A DNA stretch of 7,370 bases from a virus (lineage: Duplodnaviria > Heunggongvirae > Uroviricota > Caudoviricetes). The notes under the pieces were generated by a model. It saw nothing but the letters and a program-made list of their open reading frames with translations, was not told the DNA's origin and searched no databases. Where the stretch lies: IMG/VR virus record IMGVR_UViG_2703718811_000008, positions 1 to 7,370 of that record; one strand, written 5' to 3'. The position numbers and the translations under genes are program-made. This document shows positions 1 to 7,370 of the stretch, piece by piece. Within the stretch, counting starts at the first letter, position 1. Each line of letters begins with the position of its first letter.

Positions 1-104
1 GGACTGCCAAACGGCTGCCAGCCCTCCCTCAGTTTTTGTGTCAGTCGCTCCGCAAGGTCTGACGGAGACGCCGCCCTGACCACGTCATAGTGTTTAAATG
101 CCAT
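1..104 (-). CDS. Small phage protein, 5' part only (gene runs off the left edge); tentatively DUF1737-like, the type often found just upstream of lambdoid lysis genes
   Basis: ATG at 104..102 with GGAGG (RC of 109-113) 4 nt upstream; frame stays open to position 1; translation MAFKHYDVVRAASPSDLAERLTQKLREGWQPFGS...; absent from ORF track because under 60 aa inside the window. Family assignment is from memory of an EGW.P.G-type motif. Confidence 0.45.
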   Translation of the reverse strand, partial: MAFKHYDVVRAASPSDLAERLTQKLREGWQPFGS

Positions 105-283
105 TATTCCTCCCCTTTCCGGGATTTTCCTCAACAGTTGCGGGCCACGGTCCGGCTACACGGAGAATCAAAAGAGGAGAACCGCAGCCCGCAAAACGAA
201 AAAGGCCGCGCAGTTGCGCAGCCTTATAAACCCTGGTTAAAATCCACACGATAAAAATGACAATGCAAGTATCTCATGCTGTT

Positions 284-309
284 GCCCGAACCCACTCGGG
301 CTTTTTTTG
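284..309 (+). terminator. Rho-independent terminator (plus strand)
   Basis: Stem GCCCGA (284-289) / TCGGGC (296-301), loop ACCCAC, followed by T7 (302-308). Confidence 0.6.
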
Positions 310-310
310 C

Positions 311-340
311 ATAAAAAAATCCCCTCCGGAGAGGGGATTT
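311..340 (-). terminator. Rho-independent terminator (minus strand)
   Basis: Perfect 8-bp stem ATCCCCTC (319-326) / GAGGGGAT (331-338), loop CGGA; on the minus strand the hairpin is followed by T7 (RC of A-run 312-318). Confidence 0.6.
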
Positions 341-649
341 GCTTGTGTGAACATTTACATTGCATAACTGCATGGTGCCGGGTGCCTCCCGGTGAATTCA
401 GTATCAGCACCTGAATCCGCGATTATCACATATACCTACTTGCTGATTGCCCCTCCGCACAGGGGGATTCACCATGCGAGATTATTTTTAACAAAACGAC
501 GGGTTATTATCCAGTACCCAACATAATGAAATGTGATGCTTTTAACATTTTTCACAACCCGAGCTTAATGATAATCGCTTTATTAACACCCCAGTTTCAT
601 GGCGAGTTTAAATTTCTGCTTGTACCACTCTAGTTTAATATCAAAAATA

Positions 650-784
650 TCAGTTATCGATAAGAATATAGTAAACAAATAAACACATCCCGAGAAAACC
701 AATAACTATCATAGCTAATGCCAGCATAAATATTTGTTGTATACTTATTTTTACCGATGAAAGGTAACGCAGGAAAATGCTCAT
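650..784 (-). CDS. Candidate small single-TM membrane peptide (44 aa)
   Basis: ATG at 784..782 with GGGGA 7 nt upstream (RC of 785-800 = TTATGGGGACAGTATA); translation MSIFLRYLSSVKISIQQIFMLALAMIVIGFLGMCLFVYYILIDN, stop TGA at 650-652. This is the C-terminal part of track ORF 650..976, whose upstream part overlaps the tRNAs and is rejected. Very AT-rich, so could be a chance ORF. Confidence 0.3.
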   Translation of the reverse strand: MSIFLRYLSSVKISIQQIFMLALAMIVIGFLGMCLFVYYILIDN

Positions 785-807
785 TATACTGTCCCCATAA
801 TCCTCTA

Positions 808-882
<75 letters not shown>

Positions 883-883
883 A

Positions 884-960
884 TGGTGCGCCATACTGGA
901 TTCGAACCAGTGACCGATTGCTTAGAAGGCAATTGCTCTGTCCAACTGAGCTAACAGCGC
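884..960 (-). tRNA. tRNA-Arg (anticodon UCU, reads AGA), CCA encoded
   Basis: RC of 884-960 = GCGCTGTTAGCTCAGTTGGACAGAGCAATTGCCTTCTAAGCAATCGGTCACTGGTTCGAATCCAGTATGGCGCACCA. Canonical cloverleaf: D-arm GCTC/GAGC, anticodon stem ATTGC/GCAAT with loop CTTCTAA, T-arm ACTGG-TTCGAAT-CCAGT. Similar to but distinct from E. coli argU as recalled. Confidence 0.9.
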
Positions 961-964
961 TTCG

Positions 965-1038
965 TGCCCCTGCCATGTTTGAACCGGCGACCTGGCGGTT
1001 ATTAACCGCTCGCTCTGACCATTAGGGCTAAAGGGGCA
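965..1038 (-). tRNA. Degenerate tRNA-like element (possible pseudo-tRNA), no CCA encoded
   Basis: RC of 965-1038 = TGCCCCTTTAGCCCTAATGGTCAGAGCGAGCGGTTAATAACCGCCAGGTCGCCGGTTCAAACATGGCAGGGGCA. Perfect 7-bp acceptor-like stem TGCCCCT/AGGGGCA, T-loop-like GGTTCAAAC, anticodon-like loop TTAATAA (nominal AAU). But the D-stem has a mismatch, there are 3 nt between acceptor and D-stem, and the T-stem has a G-A pair. Sits 4 nt from tRNA-Arg. Confidence 0.35.
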
Positions 1039-1309
1039 ATAAGTTTCTTTAAAAACAGCATGCATATGCCTGCTATATAATCCATACTAACTTTTATTAA
1101 AAACAAATTCAACAAAATCAAGGTTAGCGATACTTCTTTATCTAATAGCAACATTAATTACTATTGTGTGATTTTGATGATACTCCCTATTAAAAAACTC
1201 TTCCATTAGCACAATGAGTGCTCAGCTATCTATTGAAATAAATGAGCACAAGAGGTATACATATCTCCACAGCAGACATTCTATCTAAAAGATCACAAAA
1301 ACAGACATC

Positions 1310-1657
1310 ATGATAAAAAATATTTTTATAATAATTTCAAGCATCCTCTGCATGGGGCTAATTGTGGAACATCCTCAAATCGACAGTGAAATATCGACAA
1401 ATGAAATAATCAATTGCCTTTCCAAGACAATTCAAGAAAGTGGTTATATAATGGATCTCAACGGCACCAAACCACCAATTAATGCAAAAGAATTCGCAAC
1501 ATATAGAATGTCAAAATACACCGGCTCATTCTGGATAGAGTATTCAACAGAAGGAAGACCAACAAGGAATGTTGGCATAATAAATGCAACAAATGATAAT
1601 TATAATACTTTGAATGATGCGTTACAATTTTGTATTAATAACATGACGAAATATTAA
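1310..1657 (+). CDS. Hypothetical small secreted or membrane-anchored protein (115 aa), AT-rich cargo gene
   Basis: ORF-track ORF; N-terminus MIKNIFIIISSILCMGLIV looks like a signal peptide or TM anchor; rest is hydrophilic and Asn/Thr-rich. Very AT-rich compared with the phage backbone. No strong SD before the ATG. No family recognised. Confidence 0.5.
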   Translation: MIKNIFIIISSILCMGLIVEHPQIDSEISTNEIINCLSKTIQESGYIMDLNGTKPPINAKEFATYRMSKYTGSFWIEYSTEGRPTRNVGIINATNDNYNTLNDALQFCINNMTKY

Positions 1658-1853
1658 CATCAACAATTAATATGTGTACATCCCCGTGAGCAAACCGTTC
1701 GTAATACCAGTGAGCAACAACAGCATGCGCTCCAACGTCTGAACGGCTTCGCCCATATGATATGGTTCAGCACATTAAAACGTTTACGCATCACGATTTC
1801 AATATCAGATGCCAGGCGATGTCCACAGAACAGGTAAAGACTTCCGGCTGGCT

Positions 1854-2013
1854 TTAACTACCCGACATAACGAGCTGGGTCAGTATTAACTGGCAGCGTT
1901 CGCGTGAAAGGTAAGTACTCTGCGCCATCTCCCCGACTGTCGCCGGGTCGTTAACACTTAATTCATTAAATAACACTCTGGCGGTTTCAGTCATATACGG
2001 CTGTTTCAGCATG
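1854..2013 (-). CDS. Small helix-turn-helix-like ORF (52 aa), possibly a truncated regulator remnant
   Basis: ATG at 2013..2011 with AGGGAAAAAG upstream; translation MLKQPYMTETARVLFNELSVNDPATVGEMAQSTYLSRERCQLILTQLVMSGS. The segment TVGEMAQSTYLSRERCQLILTQL has the pattern of an HTH recognition unit. The longer track ORF 1854..2195 is rejected because its extension contains a terminator hairpin. Confidence 0.35.
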
Positions 2014-2135
2014 TCTTTTTCCCTATTCCGGTTAACGTGACACACCAATAACTCTTGTCGAAAAAGCCAACAAGCTGAAAGACCGGTATTCACCACCACC
2101 AGCGCGTTTACTGAACTACTGAATGTTACAGACAT

Positions 2136-2165
2136 AAAAAAAGCCAGCCACAGGGGAAGGCTGGC
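2136..2165 (-). terminator. Rho-independent terminator (minus strand) downstream of the CPBP gene
   Basis: Stem GCCAGCC (2143-2149) / GGCTGGC (2159-2165), 9-nt loop; on the minus strand it is followed by T7 (RC of A-run 2136-2142). Confidence 0.55.
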
Positions 2166-2559
2166 AAACTCGTAGGGCAAAATGCTGTTACGCAAACTTC
2201 GTTACAGGGATATCCTGCAATACCTAAAATACACAACATTTAGACAACTACACAGTACCTCACTAAACTTTTAAGATTTTGTTATTAAATACAGTTATTC
2301 ACACTCTTACCTGATACGCAGTAATGCCCGTCTGGCCATGTAGAGTAACAACAGTCCGGGCAATGACAATCCATAGACACAAAAACCGCCCGCAGGTGGA
2401 TTTAGCAGTTTGGTACAGTAACCACTTTTAACATCATATTCTATAATTTACGTACGTAAATGCTTTACTACTCATTTTTAACCATTAATGGAGTGAATAT
2501 TATCCAGTGAGCCGTAAACCCCGTTCTTCAGGGCGTGGAGGATGTCAACAACAACATGT

Positions 2560-3378
2560 TCAATGATTTTTTAAGAATGGATAGGTAAAAAATAACAGGT
2601 GGCACAAATTCAACCCAAAATGAAAAAATGTAGCAACCCATAAGCGTCCACTAAACATCCATGCCATGCCATAAATCACTCCAGATAACATTGCAAACAG
2701 TACAAGTAACAAACCACCAGAATAATGATAAAGACCAAACAAAACTGAAGCGATAAACAATGCTACAAATGGATGTACAATCATAGAAAGACGCTGCTGA
2801 AGATATCCTCTGAAAAATGCTTCTTCAGCAAGAGAGACAAAAAACAAGTTGCTCAATATAAACTTTGGCAACCACTCCGGGAAATGAACCTCTGGTTTTA
2901 TTCCACCCAGTAAAACAGCTAAAACCAAAATAAATGGAACAGATAAAAAGAGCAAGGCCCACATTCCATAAGATACTTCGTACCTGAAATCGCTCTTAAA
3001 CAACCTGGGAAAAGATAACACCAATAAAAATGGCACCATGGCCTTATCAAAATTAAAATACATGGTGTATGGCGTACTAAACGGCCCGGTTATTACAGAA
3101 TTCAAAACCACAGGGTTATGAAAACCAGGCCAAAAGTGATATAGCAGCACAACAGATAATACAACTAAACAACTCTCCGTAACAATTCTACACCATGATT
3201 TCTGTGCCCACTTAACTTTTAACCAATACAATAGCCCAACGATTGTAAAGAGACCAAATGCCGGCCAATCTATAACTCCATTAGCGACACCCAAAACAAC
3301 AGATGCTATTAACAATAACAAAGAAAACAGTTTATATGCATTCAAACTTAGCAAGGATAAAGCCAGAACGCCCCACAT
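2560..3378 (-). CDS. CPBP-family (CAAX protease / Abi-type) intramembrane metalloprotease, 272 aa
   Basis: ATG at 3378..3376 with GGAGG about 6 nt upstream (RC of 3379-3395 = TTTTTGACGGAGGTTTT). Polytopic hydrophobic protein with the three CPBP motifs in order: EExxxR (AEEAFFRGY), FxxxH (FGLYHY), HxxxN (HFGLN). Gene is strongly AT-rich. Confidence 0.85.
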   Translation of the reverse strand: MWGVLALSLLSLNAYKLFSLLLLIASVVLGVANGVIDWPAFGLFTIVGLLYWLKVKWAQKSWCRIVTESCLVVLSVVLLYHFWPGFHNPVVLNSVITGPFSTPYTMYFNFDKAMVPFLLVLSFPRLFKSDFRYEVSYGMWALLFLSVPFILVLAVLLGGIKPEVHFPEWLPKFILSNLFFVSLAEEAFFRGYLQQRLSMIVHPFVALFIASVLFGLYHYSGGLLLVLFAMLSGVIYGMAWMFSGRLWVATFFHFGLNLCHLLFFTYPFLKNH

Positions 3379-3423
3379 AAAACCTCCGTCAAAAACAAAT
3401 CATCCCAAGATAACAATAACCAT

Positions 3424-3452
3424 TTATAATACAACTGTCATTTACAATGCAA
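3424..3452 (-). promoter_or_regulatory. Candidate sigma70 promoter for the CPBP gene (pR'-like late promoter or moron promoter)
   Basis: On the minus strand: -35 TTGCAT (3452..3447), 17-bp spacer, -10 TATAAA (3429..3424); about 45 nt upstream of the CPBP ATG, in the AT-rich Q-CPBP gap. Confidence 0.3.
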
Positions 3453-3495
3453 TGCTTACTACTCGTAAAAAATATAATAATAGTCAGAATCCTTC

Positions 3496-3519
3496 CTAGA
3501 TATTGCATGCAATATCTAG
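3496..3519. promoter_or_regulatory. Perfect 24-bp palindrome overlapping the Q stop codon; candidate protein-binding site
   Basis: CTAGATATTGCA|TGCAATATCTAG is exactly self-complementary; no U-tract on either strand, so not a classical terminator; overlaps the last Q codons and its TAG (3516-3518). Confidence 0.4.
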
Positions 3520-3884
3520 CATGCATCCATTTCCAGTGAAACATTAAGTGCCATTAACATCCCGTCAACAATACCCTCAGCCTTTTGAAGTTTTTTACCG
3601 ATATAACCATCCGAACAACCATGTTTTCTTGCCAAACTCATAAAAGTCATTCCAAATACGTAGTAATCAAGCAGCAATTCATGCAGTTCACTATTGTTCC
3701 GGTTCAGGCGCGCCATACACCCGCATATAATCATCGCGTCATCGTCACAACATTGCGGGCGGGATTTTATCTTTGCTGGAATAAGCCCCTTAAATCCGTT
3801 GGCAATAGACGACCATGTTACATCCTCATGGTTATTAGCTACCCATGCTCCCCAGTGTTCGAGAACCATCTGAATATCACGCAT
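3516..3884 (-). CDS. Late-gene antitermination protein Q (QuuD-like lambdoid Q family)
   Basis: ATG at 3884..3882 with GGAG 7 nt upstream; the track ORF starts 5 codons earlier at a TTG. Translation [34 protein letters not shown]...[16 protein letters not shown]... closely matches my recollection of E. coli DLP12 QuuD (YbcQ), including the Cys-rich zinc motif. Confidence 0.85.
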
Positions 3885-3901
3885 CAACTTTCTCCACAAA
3901 A

Positions 3902-4897
3902 TCAGGCCAGCACGCCAATTGCCAGCGCACGATCGATAAAACGAAATATCAGCTCCAGTTGGGAGCCATACTTTTCTTCAAATGCCACGGTATCCGCATG
4001 CAGCTCGTCGTGATGCTTTCTGCACAAAGGCAACACAAAAAGGTCATGCGCTTTTGTACCCATTCCACCCTGACCGTGGCCTATCAGGTGGTGGGGATCA
4101 TCAGCAGGCTTTCCACAACATGCACACGGCTGTGTCTTAACCCAGCGCGTGTACTTTTCATTAACCCAGCGGTGACGTTTTGGGCGTAACATAAAAGACT
4201 CCGGCGACTCCGGATCCACTTTCAGCGCCAGCACCTTTTTCGCTTTATCCTGGATGATGCTGGTGGCAGGAACCGAAGGAATAAGGTCACTTTCCCGGGT
4301 GACAGACGACACAACAGGCTTCGGTAATCTCAGTGCCTTACGGGCTGCACTTTCCGGTAAGGCATCCGCCAGGTCATTACGAACCAGCCACCAGCACAGT
4401 TCAGGCATTGTCACAACGTGACTATCATCAAAACCGAGATCCCGACGCACGACAGACAACACCCAGCGGGCACAGTTATCCGTTGCCATTGATTCCAGCC
4501 GTTCCGTGAACTGATCGCGCAGCTGGTTATCGCAGTGCCAGCACAGACGGATTGCGCCCGGCGCGTGTCGCATTGTGGTCATGTTCTCGCTGTGCCAGTC
4601 GGAATGAGGCCACTGGCAGCCTTTTTCACGAAGTAACCAGCTTTCAAGACATTCCACGCCACCAGCACGACGGATCACTGCCTCATTGCGGAACACGGCC
4701 CGAACGGCAGGATCATCCGCCAGCGGTTGTGATGCCGCCGGAACAGCACCACTGGCGAAAGATGAATAACGTTCCGGCTCAGGCTCCAGCAGGACACGCC
4801 CCTGCATAAACAGGGGCATCAGCTCTGAACCTGGCCTGAACAATACGATCCCCATACGCGGGGCAATTTCAGGGGTCAGTAGTGCTCTCACGGTCAC
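3902..4897 (-). CDS. DUF968-like prophage protein with C-terminal Cys/His (HNH-like zinc-binding) motif; YdfU-like position directly upstream of Q
   Basis: 331-aa ORF, stop TGA at 3902-3904. C-terminus [43 protein letters not shown] has C-x2-C...HH...PLC..HH...H spacing. Start uncertain: GTG at 4897, GTG at 4891 (better SD GAGG) or internal ATG. Confidence 0.75.
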
Positions 4898-4898
4898 C

Positions 4899-5708
4899 TC
4901 AATGAACGGTATCGAGCAGCTTTAACAGCTCAGGGAATCGGGATTCGAAGAAATGCGGCTGCGTCTCGCGCGGATTTGCGGGACTGGTGATGTTCTTGCC
5001 GAACATGCAGCCTTTCGCTGTCAGCGACCAGAATTTTTTGATGTTGTTAATCGCGGTACGGCTGTATCGTTCGCGCTGCTCGACGATCCCCAGCTTCACC
5101 ATCTGGTGATATGCCTGATTAGCCGTCAGGCGGATACCATACTGCTTCAGCAGTGCACTCAGTGACAGCGTAGGGCGACTTGAGCCATCGGGTGCATCGG
5201 CAGGAGCATCAATTGCATAGCGCGGAGCCAGATTCGGTAAGCCAACAGCCTCCTGGAGTTTCTGACAAGCCCCAAGCACAGATGAGTTAGACAGGTTTAA
5301 TTCCCGACGCATAAAGTCCAGCAGGATCACGCCAGCCTGCATCTTGTCAGCAGCCTGCCCGGATAATTTTTCCGGTGCGCTGGTTATCATATCGAAAGTA
5401 CGGATCACCTTCAGATGGAATGACGGGCTGATCCACATTGCATAGGCATACACCAGTTCTTTGCAGACATACGTCCCCTGGTTATTTCCGCCATTAATGA
5501 CGCTAACTGGTTGATTTTGTTCCAGAGGCGGAATTCCACCCTCGGTGAAAAGTTGTTCAATCAATTCACAGGTTTGCTTATTGGAGAGCCAGTATTTCGG
5601 GCGGTTTTTTTGTTCTCCCCCGGCTGCCCTGTGCAGATCGTTCAGGCTGTAACGCCCATAAGCATCACGACGAACTTCAATACCATCAATGACCATCAGA
5701 TTATTCAT
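4899..5708 (-). CDS. KilA-N domain protein (Roi / antirepressor-like), 269 aa
   Basis: ATG at 5708..5706 with AGGAG 9-10 nt upstream. N-terminus (VIDGIEVRRDAYGRYSLNDLHRA...GTYVCKELVYAYAMWISPSFHLKVI) matches the KilA-N/APSES pattern (GTWVHP..A..FA.WISPEF as recalled). Stop TGA at 4899-4901. Confidence 0.8.
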   Translation of the reverse strand: MNNLMVIDGIEVRRDAYGRYSLNDLHRAAGGEQKNRPKYWLSNKQTCELIEQLFTEGGIPPLEQNQPVSVINGGNNQGTYVCKELVYAYAMWISPSFHLKVIRTFDMITSAPEKLSGQAADKMQAGVILLDFMRRELNLSNSSVLGACQKLQEAVGLPNLAPRYAIDAPADAPDGSSRPTLSLSALLKQYGIRLTANQAYHQMVKLGIVEQRERYSRTAINNIKKFWSLTAKGCMFGKNITSPANPRETQPHFFESRFPELLKLLDTVH

Positions 5709-5727
5709 ACTTCGTTTCTCCTCTTAA

Positions 5728-5955
5728 TCAGGCGGCTGCACCCGCCGTTTTCTCGTACTTACTGATAGTGATCTCGACCTTCCCTCCCGGGATAACCGGT
5801 CCCCACTCCACCAGCATTCTTTTCACCTGACTGTCGTCTTCCCACACACCCGCGTGGGTCAGGGCGTCAAACAGCGCCTTGTTATAGTTGTCCAGATCGC
5901 GGATCCGGTTATCCCAGCATGGTTGCCACCTCCTGATTGGTTGGCGGAAAGCCAC
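5728..5955 (-). pseudogene. rusA: RusA Holliday-junction resolvase, C-terminal part only (5'-truncated)
   Basis: Frame translates to ...DNRIRDLDNYNKALFDALTHAGVWEDDSQVKRMLVEWGPVIPGGKVEITISKYE, matching the RusA C-terminal catalytic half (RRRDLDN...DALTKAGFWLDDAQV...GGRLELTITE as recalled). The frame is closed upstream, and the roughly 60 N-terminal residues expected for RusA are absent. The track's start is a GTG, and RusA-like sequence begins near 5915. Confidence 0.6.
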
Positions 5956-6019
5956 GCTCTTTCTGGTAAGAAATCAGCATATCCAGCACCTGCTGCTGGC
6001 ATTGAGTTAACGTCGTCAT
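5909..6019 (-). other. 36-codon ORF resembling the N-terminal start of a LexA-type DNA-binding domain; probable remnant at a mosaic junction
   Basis: ATG at 6019..6017 overlaps the TAA of the upstream gene (TAATG). Translation MTTLTQCQQQVLDMLISYQKERGFPPTNQEVATMLG aligns without gaps to LexA residues about 4-36 ([33 protein letters not shown], recalled), then hits TAA exactly where RusA similarity begins in the +1 frame. Confidence 0.3.
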
Positions 6020-6507
6020 TACGCCCCCACGTAATTCCCTGACAGATACCACTCATCACCCGATACAGCGCGCTTGCTGCTTTTCCGTAAACACTGCTCA
6101 CGACGCGCCAGAAAATTGTTTCGTTCTGGCTGGGAGTGGCTTTCACGGAATGCCGCCATCCACACGGTTGCAGCACGACGGTATAAGCCCCTGGACTCCA
6201 GTTCTTCAGCCTGGCGGGTCAGGCACAAAATCACCCGTGGATCGTTAGTGCCGACATAGAAATTGCGCACAGGTCTGGTTTCACGAACTGGTTGTGGTTC
6301 CGGCTCCTGCGCTCTCTCAGTCAGGCGCGGGAAATGTCTGCGTGTATCTCCTTCACAACGGTGAGCCACACGCCCACTCTGACGTAACTTGCTTGCTGAC
6401 TGCAGAACGCGCTGCCGTGAGTAACCTGCAAAAGCCTCCGCAATGTCTCCGGAAGTACACCCCGGATGGGCTTCAATGAATTTCTGAACGTCATTCAAAA
6501 GACTCAT
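6019..6507 (-). CDS. PerC-like transcriptional regulator with N-terminal winged-helix-like region (162 aa)
   Basis: ATG at 6507..6505 overlaps the TGA of the upstream replication gene (ATGA) and has GGGGGGG upstream. C-terminal LESRGLYRRAATVWMAAFRESHSQPERNNFLARREQCL matches the recalled PerC/Pch signature (LEARGLWRRAAARW...RRRKHCL). Confidence 0.65.
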   Translation of the reverse strand: MSLLNDVQKFIEAHPGCTSGDIAEAFAGYSRQRVLQSASKLRQSGRVAHRCEGDTRRHFPRLTERAQEPEPQPVRETRPVRNFYVGTNDPRVILCLTRQAEELESRGLYRRAATVWMAAFRESHSQPERNNFLARREQCLRKSSKRAVSGDEWYLSGNYVGA

Positions 6508-7370
6508 AATCCCCCCCTGAATCCTGCCGGGATCTGGCTGTAGTCCACGTTGTCGTAACTGGCTTTGAAGTACGGGTCTTCGCGTTTTTCGGTGTACGTG
6601 CTGACGGACGGCGATAAGCGCAGGGAAAGCTCATCCCATTTTTCCCGCAGCTTCGACGGGCTGAGCACGTTACGGCACCAGAACGGATCGCGACTGACGC
6701 GGCTGTACATCTCGCAGATTTGTTTATGAGTACGACCATCCTGCACACACATCAGGCGAATTTCGTTTGCCCAGGCTGTCCAGTTCGGTTCTTTGGGACG
6801 AACCACCTCGCCGTCACATTCGGCGGCATGCTCGTACAGGGCGATGATTTTTTTCCAGAGCCACTGTGCGCAGGTCAAATCATCCTGCGTCCCCCACTGG
6901 CGCTTTTTAGGACTGAATACAACCGCATCAGGATGGCGAGTTAAAAAATCCTGTTCAGCCGTCTGCGTGTCCGGTTGCGAAGCGTCCGGACGAGAAGTTT
7001 TTTTATCTGACGGATCATGTTTTGATTTTACTGACGGATCCCCACCAGATTCTGACGGGTGAAAACCCGCTTTTTTGCCAGATTTCGACGCATCAAATTT
7101 TGACGGGCCAGATTTTGATGCGTCAGATTTTGACGGGTCAGAATCTGACAGTTGAGAAAATGCCGCTGCCTGAAGCTTCGCAACGTTAAGCTGATAAACA
7201 TTCGACGCATTGCGGTTACCCTGGCGACGCGCCTTACGCGTTAACCAGCCTTCTGCTTCCAGCCGTGCGATAGCCGTTCTGACGGTACTCATCCCCGCGC
7301 CAATCTGGCGGGCAATGGTTTCAATTGATGGCCAGCACACACCTTTGAACCGCCCCGGAAATCCTGGAGA
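6504..7370 (-). CDS. Phage replication initiation protein (O-like; winged-helix N-terminal domain, repeat-encoded linker), 5' end beyond window
   Basis: Frame is open to the right edge (the track's start at 7340 is a GTG, not a true start). The N-terminal CWPSIETIARQIGAGMSTVRTAIARLEAEGWLTRKARRQGNRNASNVYQL fits the wHTH pattern of replication initiators. An internal Ser/Asp/Lys-rich low-complexity linker is encoded by the tandem DNA repeats. Position is upstream of a nin-like region and Q. Confidence 0.7.
   Translation of the reverse strand, partial: SPGFPGRFKGVCWPSIETIARQIGAGMSTVRTAIARLEAEGWLTRKARRQGNRNASNVYQLNVAKLQAAAFSQLSDSDPSKSDASKSGPSKFDASKSGKKAGFHPSESGGDPSVKSKHDPSDKKTSRPDASQPDTQTAEQDFLTRHPDAVVFSPKKRQWGTQDDLTCAQWLWKKIIALYEHAAECDGEVVRPKEPNWTAWANEIRLMCVQDGRTHKQICEMYSRVSRDPFWCRNVLSPSKLREKWDELSLRLSPSVSTYTEKREDPYFKASYDNVDYSQIPAGFRGGL
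7081..7155. repeat. Five direct 15-bp tandem repeats (iteron-like), with three looser copies at 7001-7060
   Basis: GATTTCGACGCATCA / AATTTTGACGGGCCA / GATTTTGATGCGTCA / GATTTTGACGGGTCA / GAATCTGACAGTTGA at exact 15-bp spacing. The core TGACGGGTCA is a TGAC/GTCA inverted repeat. Extra TGACGG copies at 7008, 7032 and 7053 flank an AT-rich patch (6996-7030). Confidence 0.8.

Follow-up and report, generated by a model that had tools for sequence, protein, structure and literature searches.

What is an intramembrane protease gene doing between the antiterminator gene Q and the tRNA genes of a lambdoid prophage, and does it occupy the place where Shiga toxin (Stx) phages carry stx? The question is raised by a stretch of 7,370 nucleotides (nt) from a virus of the Caudoviricetes (IMG/VR record IMGVR_UViG_2703718811_000008, positions 1 to 7,370; hereafter the window, meaning the whole stretch). 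On its minus strand, positions 2560-3378 encode a 272-residue protein of the CPBP (Rce1-like/Abi) family of intramembrane glutamic endopeptidases. A first-pass annotation had read the AT-rich block at 1040-3520 as a single acquired moron in the stx slot, comprising the protease gene, a small helix-turn-helix (HTH)-like open reading frame (ORF) and a gene for a small secreted protein. We find that the protease gene occupies a defined slot ahead of the late promoter PR', which takes several kinds of cargo, and not the stx slot. The gene class and the moron concept were already known, as was the automated annotation (RefSeq lists a CPBP family endopeptidase). What is now precise is the position of the gene, between Q and PR' and upstream of a StxS-like leader.

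Membership of the protein in the CPBP family is established by profile, motifs and predicted fold taken together. Pfam PF02517 (Rce1-like) matches residues 169-258 with 66.7 bits, for a cut-off of 22.4. The three catalytic motifs, EExxxR (E185, E186, R190), FxxxH (F214, H218) and HxxxN (H253, N257), had been pointed out in the first-pass annotation; none is lost on careful alignment, all being invariant in 14 aligned homologues (the window protein and 13 others). Further invariant positions in the N-terminal part of the same alignment are specific to this protease subfamily. The NCBIfam models of CPBP subfamilies match the protein weakly, all under their cut-offs, and phrog_13291, a family of unknown function, matches it over its full length. 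An AlphaFold model computed from the homologue alignment reached a predicted local distance difference test score (pLDDT) of 91.3, and the fold predicted from sequence and model is multi-helical, all-alpha and Rce1/SpdC-like. A sequence search of the PDB gave no match, and a fold search of BFVD retrieved nothing closer than remote CAAX proteases from giant viruses and uncultured phages. With its active site complete, the protein is, in our judgement, likely to be an active CPBP-type protease.

Locating the gene relative to the late promoter required that Q and PR' be assigned. Q (3516-3899, minus strand) belongs to the H-19B/933W/QuuD family (PF06530, E 7e-52); the listed ORF has 127 codons, and the RefSeq start at 3884 gives 122 residues. 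Its product shares 79% identity with Q of the Stx1 phage AP005153 (H-19B/933W type) and 83-87% with QuuD-type Q proteins from IMG/VR. The late promoter PR' (2433-2460, minus strand) consists of a -35 element TTTACG (2460-2455) within the palindrome TTTACGTACGTAAA (2460-2447), a 16-nt spacer and a -10 element TATGAT (2438-2433), with a predicted start at about 2426. It is homologous to the “putative late promoter” TTTACGATCGTAAAAATCTGCATATCAT of the VT1-Sakai record (AP000400), which abuts the Q stop codon and is annotated there together with a qut site and two terminators. In VT1-Sakai, the -10 element ends 264 nt before the U-run of the second terminator does, so that a transcript would be about 257-258 nt long. 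Differential RNA sequencing and Term-seq have measured 258 nt for the PR' transcript that the Sakai Stx phages make constitutively (PMC7547250). The box at 2460-2433 is taken as PR' on the basis of this annotation and of the fit to the 258-nt transcript. The same pattern, a -35 box TTTACGNNCGTAAA followed by 16 nt, TATnnT and GTTAAGAGTGGTTAC, occurs a single time after Q in 91 of 94 loci of the same Q family, and the window has a single copy, downstream of the protease gene. Another candidate, the -35 and -10 elements annotated in AP005153 (TTGCACA and AATATT, at about 2265-2234 in the window), was rejected: the segment is absent in the closest Q relatives, VT1-Sakai annotates a different promoter beside Q, and only the latter fits the 258-nt transcript. 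In sequence terms, the AP005153 “promoter” segment sits inside the PR' leader.

The leader itself could be followed to its end. Its first terminator (2381-2399, minus strand) has decayed: the window reads CCACCTGCGGGCGG TTTTT where relatives have ACCCGCC..GGCGGG and a T-run, and it forms no stable hairpin (z +0.31), as compared with -25.3 kcal/mol in locus L005 and -19.6 kcal/mol in locus L100. The protease gene had been credited at first pass with a terminator of its own; there is no convincing hairpin with a U-run between the protease stop codon (2560) and PR' (2460). The 3' part of the leader, from an RNase E motif GU|AUU at 2223-2219 to the terminator tR', constitutes a StxS-like small-RNA region (2136-2221, minus strand). 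Here 80 of 86 nt (93%) are identical to the VT1-Sakai segment that yields StxS, a small RNA described in the Sakai Stx phages (PMC7547250); no Rfam family matches the region. The intrinsic terminator tR' (2136-2165, minus strand), annotated in AP000400 as a terminator of the PR' transcript, is made of GCCAGCC (2165-2159), a 9-nt loop, GGCTGGC (2149-2143) and seven T (2142-2136). It folds with -14.5 kcal/mol (z -3.0), is the first strong terminator after the protease gene, and is taken as functional because of the transcript-length fit in VT1-Sakai. Hence, the window has in sequence all parts of a PR'-StxS-tR' unit, namely the promoter box, the RNase E motif and a 3' segment that ends in the tR' hairpin. 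The O157-type CPBP prophage (locus L101, 7900-7990) has the PR' box and the first terminator without the StxS-like segment found in the window and in Stx1 and Stx1d phages.

With PR' in hand, the distance between the Q stop codon and PR' was surveyed over the 91 loci in which the box had been located. It ranges from -12 to 2846 nt and falls into discrete classes. The gap is empty in nine loci, measuring -12 nt in two Stx1 phages and 29 nt in seven others. It spans 1016-1056 nt in 13 loci, all of which contain CPBP on the same strand as Q. A porin gene on the strand opposite to Q fills it in 66 loci (about 1520-1650 nt), and porin plus an insertion sequence (IS) element in one (2846 nt); the porin (PF00267, E 1e-156) corresponds to the DLP12 quuD-nmpC arrangement (IMG/VR loci L033-L099). 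Two single loci carry a DnaD_N-like protein of 197 residues (780 nt, L019) and a secreted-looking protein (487 nt, L031). In the window, 1056 nt separate the Q stop codon from the -35 box of PR', where relatives without cargo have the two elements touching, overlapping or 29 nt apart. With an nmpC/lc-type porin gene there in 66 loci, the interval between Q and PR' is a general cargo slot in this Q family, holding the porin in DLP12-type prophages and the protease in O157-type, Stx1d and other prophages. CPBP was present in 2 of the 80 best Q relatives from IMG/VR, which is an unbiased sample. As to the minor cargos, the DnaD_N-like protein of L019, a Stx1a phage, is encoded at 3254-3847; the cargo of L031 (about 4430-4845) encodes a His/Lys-rich protein of 137 residues with a signal-like N-terminus, and that of L032 an ORF6N-domain protein and a lipoprotein-like ORF.

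The composition of the gene also sets it apart: its guanine-plus-cytosine (GC) content is 37.2%, against 43.2% for Q and 53.6% for the early region. Overall, the protease gene is intact, horizontally mobile cargo at a fixed place beside Q, and we hold its assignment to the interval between Q and PR' with high confidence. What the first-pass annotation called a moron survives in part, as regards the protease gene, which comparison of homologous prophages reveals to be variable cargo at a fixed position; that position is the interval between Q and PR', the left part of the block has a separate history, and the gene has no terminator of its own.

The displaced promoter bears on toxin regulation. 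One lineage of the protease belongs to Stx1d phages, where the order is Q-CPBP-PR'-tR'-stx1d. In the Stx1d prophage of RM8082 (L018), we found the PR' box at 6342-6329, about 1 kb past Q and behind CPBP, and it is likewise present in L009-L011. The published description of this prophage states that “No putative PR' was identified” (PMC9729726), a failure accounted for by the displacement of the box by the protease gene. The position of PR' in Stx1d phages, 1 kb further on and directly before the stx1d leader, matters for predicting how the toxin is regulated.

We then considered where the protease comes from and how far it has spread. At about 50% identity, the homologues are chromosomal genes of Enterobacter, Hafnia and Dickeya that stand alone among unrelated housekeeping genes, and protein homology shows the prophage protease to derive from such a stand-alone gene family of other Enterobacterales. 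Homologues with 62-65% identity, on the other hand, are all found in lambdoid prophages of Shigella, Escherichia albertii and E. coli, always directly after a Q of the same family (122-127 residues) and on the same strand. In Salmonella, the homologue P0007 (55% identity) has IS elements and not Q as its neighbours, and is therefore uninformative on the slot. A tblastn search of the INPHARED phage genomes with CPBP gave no match; outside prophages and IMG/VR contigs the gene is not known.

Within E. coli the gene is very common. The O157-type allele WP_000265265.1 occurs in 574 of 5426 complete genomes, about a tenth, at the same position, in strains that include O157:H7, O55:H7, O26, O111, O145 and O103, which argues against rarity. 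Its locus reads DUF968-RusA-Q-CPBP-small ORF-HTH protein-tRNAs-SASA esterase-holin, and the gene is annotated as an intact coding sequence in all sampled matches. In a large collection of contigs, the exact protease of the window was found on 631 contigs and the O157 allele on at least 1000. Q and CPBP have diverged congruently between lineages: both genes single out the same two lineages as closest and the same two as most distant. The ratio of nonsynonymous to synonymous substitution rates (dN/dS) of CPBP is 0.12-0.30 between lineages, dS being saturated for most pairs. These comparisons of coding sequences show the protease to be under purifying selection and to have co-diverged with Q. Because of the congruent divergence and the low dN/dS, the Q-CPBP pair behaves as an old, selected module, neither a recent accident nor rare.

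How would such a gene be expressed? Given that it lies upstream of PR' and tR', the protease gene cannot depend on Q-modified transcription from PR', and the gene order thus shows it to be independent of Q antitermination at that promoter. Translation would start from a Shine-Dalgarno sequence GGAGG (3383-3387), 4 nt before the ATG, in agreement with the strong ribosome-binding site noted at first pass. For transcription, scanning and inspection of the sequence yielded candidate sigma-70 promoters at 3413-3452 (minus strand), namely TTGCAT-18-TATAAA (3452-3423) and the overlapping ATGACA-17-TATTGT (3441-3413). A sigma-70-like site precedes the ATG by 28-46 nt in all CPBP lineages; those of E. 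albertii, Stx1d and O157 have TTGTCA, TTGCCA or TTGCCT at -35, 17 nt, and GATAAT at -10, and TTGACA-19-TATAAT is also among the equivalent boxes of other CPBP lineages. Moreover, the -35, the -10 and the ribosome-binding site form conserved blocks in Q-CPBP spacers that have otherwise diverged. The promoter proposed at first pass remains a candidate, as matches of this kind are no more frequent than chance in this DNA. A resemblance of the protease promoter to PR', as though it were a diverged duplicate (both contain TTGCAx ... GGATGA), is absent in other CPBP lineages and was treated as chance.

In the lysogen, where a local promoter would be required, the protease would be transcribed from its own sigma-70-like one, and we lean slightly towards its being expressed in lysogens. 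Upon induction, the N-antiterminated PR transcript that makes Q may run on into CPBP, a read-through suggested by the common strand and by the lack of any convincing terminator between the two genes. A perfect 24-nt palindrome, CTAGATATTGCATGCAATATCTAG (3496-3519, minus strand), overlaps the Q stop codon; its hairpin (-11.3 kcal/mol, z -2.26) has no adjacent U-run, it is seen in the allele of the window only, and it may serve to bind a protein or be left over from recombination. Protease transcripts would end at tR', 395-424 nt past the stop codon, after passing through the StxS-like region, so that StxS-like sequence would stand at their 3' end. Protease mRNA is therefore a possible second source, independent of PR', of a StxS-like regulatory RNA.

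These features lead to a proposal for the function of the protease. The porin, the commonest cargo of the slot, is a classic receptor-changing gene of lysogenic conversion. A protective function of the protease in the envelope of the lysogen is argued from three sides: its active site is intact and under purifying selection, its position is independent of Q in that same slot, and CPBP proteins have precedents as immunity factors against membrane-active peptides. By analogy, the protease would protect the lysogen by cleaving some peptide or protein that has inserted into the inner membrane, most likely as immunity to a membrane-active peptide toxin, like McsI and the Abi immunity proteins of Gram-positive bacteria. 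The analogy with bacteriocin immunity drawn at first pass is a reasonable one, given the E. coli precedent: McsI, a CAAX/CPBP protein of 216 residues from strain G3/10, is sufficient for immunity to microcin S (PMC3316575). Taken as a whole, a Q-independent membrane protease expressed in the lysogen and protective in function, encoded between Q and PR', is the explanation we favour, by a small degree of confidence. Its protective or immunity role, which is drawn from analogy, is in itself only tentatively proposed. More doubtful again is that CPBP represents a new determinant of lysogenic conversion or defence in Gram-negative bacteria, conferring immunity to a membrane-active toxin such as a class II microcin, or blocking the entry of superinfecting phages. 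If true, about one E. coli strain in ten, with O157:H7 and further enterohaemorrhagic E. coli (EHEC) lineages among them, would be protected by an orphan intramembrane protease.

Several results weigh against this proposal. No toxin or export genes are present in the window or in any related locus. Searches by tblastn with the whole protein and with its catalytic half over 72,556 plasmids (E <= 10; pSYM1 and pMO17_54 were not among them) gave no match on an E. coli microcin plasmid. As no CPBP protein of an E. coli plasmid resembles the prophage protease in this search, the latter would at most work like McsI and would not be its orthologue. The promoter scan returned 11 promoter-like sites where 10.1 are expected by chance in this AT-rich DNA. 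The chromosomal homologues are conserved singletons in housekeeping neighbourhoods, which fits a general envelope function equally well. A check for known defence systems with PADLOC-DB 2.0 (E <= 0.01) matched neither CPBP nor the small ORFs nor Q, and we found no study of this protease gene in the literature. Finally, the place of the gene directly behind Q on the same strand also fits a role in the lytic cycle.

This last point is the starting point of the rival explanation that survives best, although we regard it as unlikely. On this view, CPBP would close the delayed-early (PR) operon, would be produced along with Q once the prophage is induced, and would serve phage development, perhaps by processing a membrane protein of phage or host ahead of lysis or by keeping other phages out during the lytic cycle. 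It is consistent with the orientation of the gene, which follows Q in all 13 CPBP loci while the porin cargo is antisense, with a short Q-CPBP spacer (122-150 nt) that has no U-run terminator, and with the strict linkage and co-divergence of CPBP and Q. Yet most phages of this Q family do without CPBP, as the IMG/VR sample illustrates, and the lysis cassettes vary among those that have it, leaving no constant phage partner. The promoter-like and ribosome-binding blocks conserved just upstream of CPBP, as well as the origin of the gene among stand-alone chromosomal genes, also point away from a lytic function.

Less probable still is a role in phage defence or in the exclusion of superinfecting phages, where the protease would cut, for example, a protein ejected by the phage or a factor at the inner membrane needed for entry. 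In its favour, the gene product is a membrane protein whose active site is complete, EHEC lineages rich in prophages commonly carry the gene, and the porin takes the same slot in DLP12/PA-2-type prophages; on the other side, no PADLOC model matches, we found no literature linking CPBP proteins to exclusion in Gram-negative bacteria, and the family name “Abi” is not known to derive from an abortive-infection phenotype. That CPBP merely hitch-hikes with Q, functionless in E. coli, would agree with the lack of a known phenotype and with the frequent silencing of AT-rich genes in E. coli, but it is very improbable for a 272-codon frame kept intact in four lineages at 56-65% amino acid identity, with invariant catalytic residues, dN/dS of 0.12-0.30 and an O157-type allele annotated as intact in all sampled matches.

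There remains the initial idea of one island. The AT-richness of the block is real: the GC content is 37.6% for 1040-3520, compared with 53.6% for the early region (3900-7370) and 46.4% for 1-1039. It is uneven inside the block, with 31.1% for 1040-1660, 46.3% for 1660-2130 and 37.4% for 2131-3515, and these parts differ in their distribution among genomes. The parts are common, yet the block in its entirety was found in no more than 2 of 5426 complete E. coli genomes. Strain ST866 has positions 1040-2141 with 98.8% identity; there they follow immediately upon another antiterminator, of 273 residues, and the protease gene is absent. Conversely, O157, E. albertii, Shigella and Stx1d prophages have the protease gene, which travels with Q, without the ORF for the secreted protein. 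The block is thus a composite of three unrelated pieces. A single defence or immunity island in the stx slot, in which protease, HTH regulator and secreted protein act together, could appeal to the low GC content throughout and to the location between Q and the tRNA genes, but we give it hardly any credence, since the block is split by PR', the StxS-like leader and tR', the supposed HTH ORF overlaps these RNA elements, and the distribution data already contradict it. The first-pass location of the block, with Q upstream and the tRNA-Arg and tRNA-Gly genes downstream, was right; the protease gene, being upstream of PR' and tR', lies outside the stx slot.

The true stx slot is the region downstream of tR' (1040-2130). 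It consists of a decayed unit of small ORFs and DNA methylase, as in Stx-type phages, and of an unrelated gene for an exported protein. The HTH-like ORF of 113 residues (1854-2195) proposed at first pass is an over-extension whose start, at 2195, falls within the segment of the StxS-like RNA and tR'. A shorter ORF of 52 residues (1854-2012, minus strand) is plausible; it is a RefSeq coding sequence in L001 and matches phrog_331 (E 5.6e-33), and no Pfam or NCBIfam model. Its region is 86-92% identical at the nucleotide level to Stx phages, and homologues elsewhere are named TrmB-family regulator. Positions 1660-1794 (minus strand) are an internal fragment of a DNA methyltransferase gene, a pseudogene remnant in the RefSeq annotation of L001 and L002 (“incomplete; missing N-terminus and C-terminus”), with intact genes matched in two pieces. 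On the plus strand, at 1310-1657, lies the ORF for the small exported protein (115 residues), in convergent orientation to the late operon and within the part of the block richest in AT. As announced at first pass, it looks secreted: it belongs to an Escherichia-only family with 61-99% identity, a conserved hydrophobic signal-like N-terminus and two invariant cysteines. It has no match in Pfam, PHROG or PADLOC. It is probably a real exported protein, unlinked to CPBP. Neither it nor the HTH-like ORF can be joined to the protease as a module, as both lack any linkage to CPBP.

The remainder of the window follows the gene order of a lambdoid prophage, with the genes of interest all on the minus strand. 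Upstream of Q are DUF968 (3902-4897), a KilA-N protein (4899-5708), a truncated RusA between the KilA-N protein and PerC, PerC itself (6019-6507) and an O-like replication protein (6504-7340). The KilA-N protein matches the PADLOC candidate-system model PDC-S22 weakly (E 1e-6, over 37 residues only). Compared with positions 13877-15048 of L001, a prophage of E. coli OkiPb01678 that is otherwise 97-98% identical, two stretches, of 416 nt and 640 nt, are absent from the region around 5910-6025 of the window, as is the gene for a phage N6-adenine methyltransferase, and both RusA and a LexA-like ORF are shortened. Repetitive sequence at 7022-7210, within the O-like replication gene, gives repeated peptide motifs in several frames and probably represents origin iterons; a spurious Rfam match to mir-5880 (7076-7150) falls inside it. 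Downstream of the block are a degenerate tRNA-like element (965-1037, minus strand; Rfam tRNA 28.3 bits for a gathering score of 29, not called by ARAGORN), tRNA-Arg(tct) (884-960, minus strand) and tRNA-Gly(tcc) (808-882, minus strand), the latter two called by ARAGORN and matched by the Rfam tRNA family with 68.7 and 62.7 bits. O157-type prophages have tRNA-Ile/Arg/Arg at this position, where the window has the degenerate element just upstream of tRNA-Arg. In L001, the tRNA genes are followed by those of a SASA esterase, holin, lysozyme and terminase. Two further Rfam matches sit downstream of the tRNA genes and outside the block: the prophage small RNA STnc100 (308-507, minus strand, 136 bits, E 8e-31) and, on the opposite strand at 249-308, the EHEC anti-small RNA AgvB (56.6 bits, gathering score 56), where AsxR matches more weakly (46.8 bits, under its gathering score of 63).

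How does this arrangement compare with known systems? At the level of the protein, the prophage protease resembles Rce1 (PDB 4CAD) and Staphylococcus aureus SpdC/LyrA (PDB 6U0O) by its Pfam match above cut-off, its three catalytic motifs and its predicted fold, which matches both. However, it shares only 14-20% identity with these solved members and has a conserved N-terminal membrane half of its own, of about 150 residues, with the motifs H81-x2-PGF-x-N and N109-x-DKA. This conserved half defines, at the level of the alignment, an enterobacterial subfamily of CPBP proteases. In addition, SpdC is thought to be non-catalytic, whereas the prophage protease retains the full active site. McsI, which with PlnI and SkkI counts among the CPBP-type immunity proteins for bacteriocins or microcins, and the Gram-positive Abi immunity proteins belong to the same superfamily, and McsI likewise comes from E. 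coli and is a stand-alone membrane protein sufficient for immunity. McsI is nevertheless shorter (216 against 272 residues) and is encoded in a plasmid microcin operon, while the prophage protease has no toxin or export neighbours.

At the level of the locus, the PR'-StxS-tR' unit of the window shares its promoter box, RNase E motif and tR' hairpin with that of the Sakai Stx1 and Stx2a phages (Sy, Lan & Tree 2020). It is displaced from Q by 1056 nt through the CPBP insertion, its first hairpin has decayed, and its leader, known here from sequence, would measure about 290 nt rather than 258 nt. The nmpC/lc porin of DLP12/PA-2-type prophages shares with CPBP the gap between a QuuD-family Q and PR', and both cargos are Q-independent genes for envelope proteins. 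They differ in that the porin is an outer-membrane protein whose gene takes up about 1.6 kb on the opposite strand, and CPBP an inner-membrane enzyme whose gene takes up about 1.05 kb on the same strand as Q. The stx genes occur in the same phage group and with the same Q family as CPBP, and in Stx1d phages both cargos are found in one locus; stx comes after PR'-tR' and is activated by Q, whereas CPBP comes before PR'. The few bases that separate Q from PR' in this Q family are thus a cargo slot whose genes escape the control of Q.

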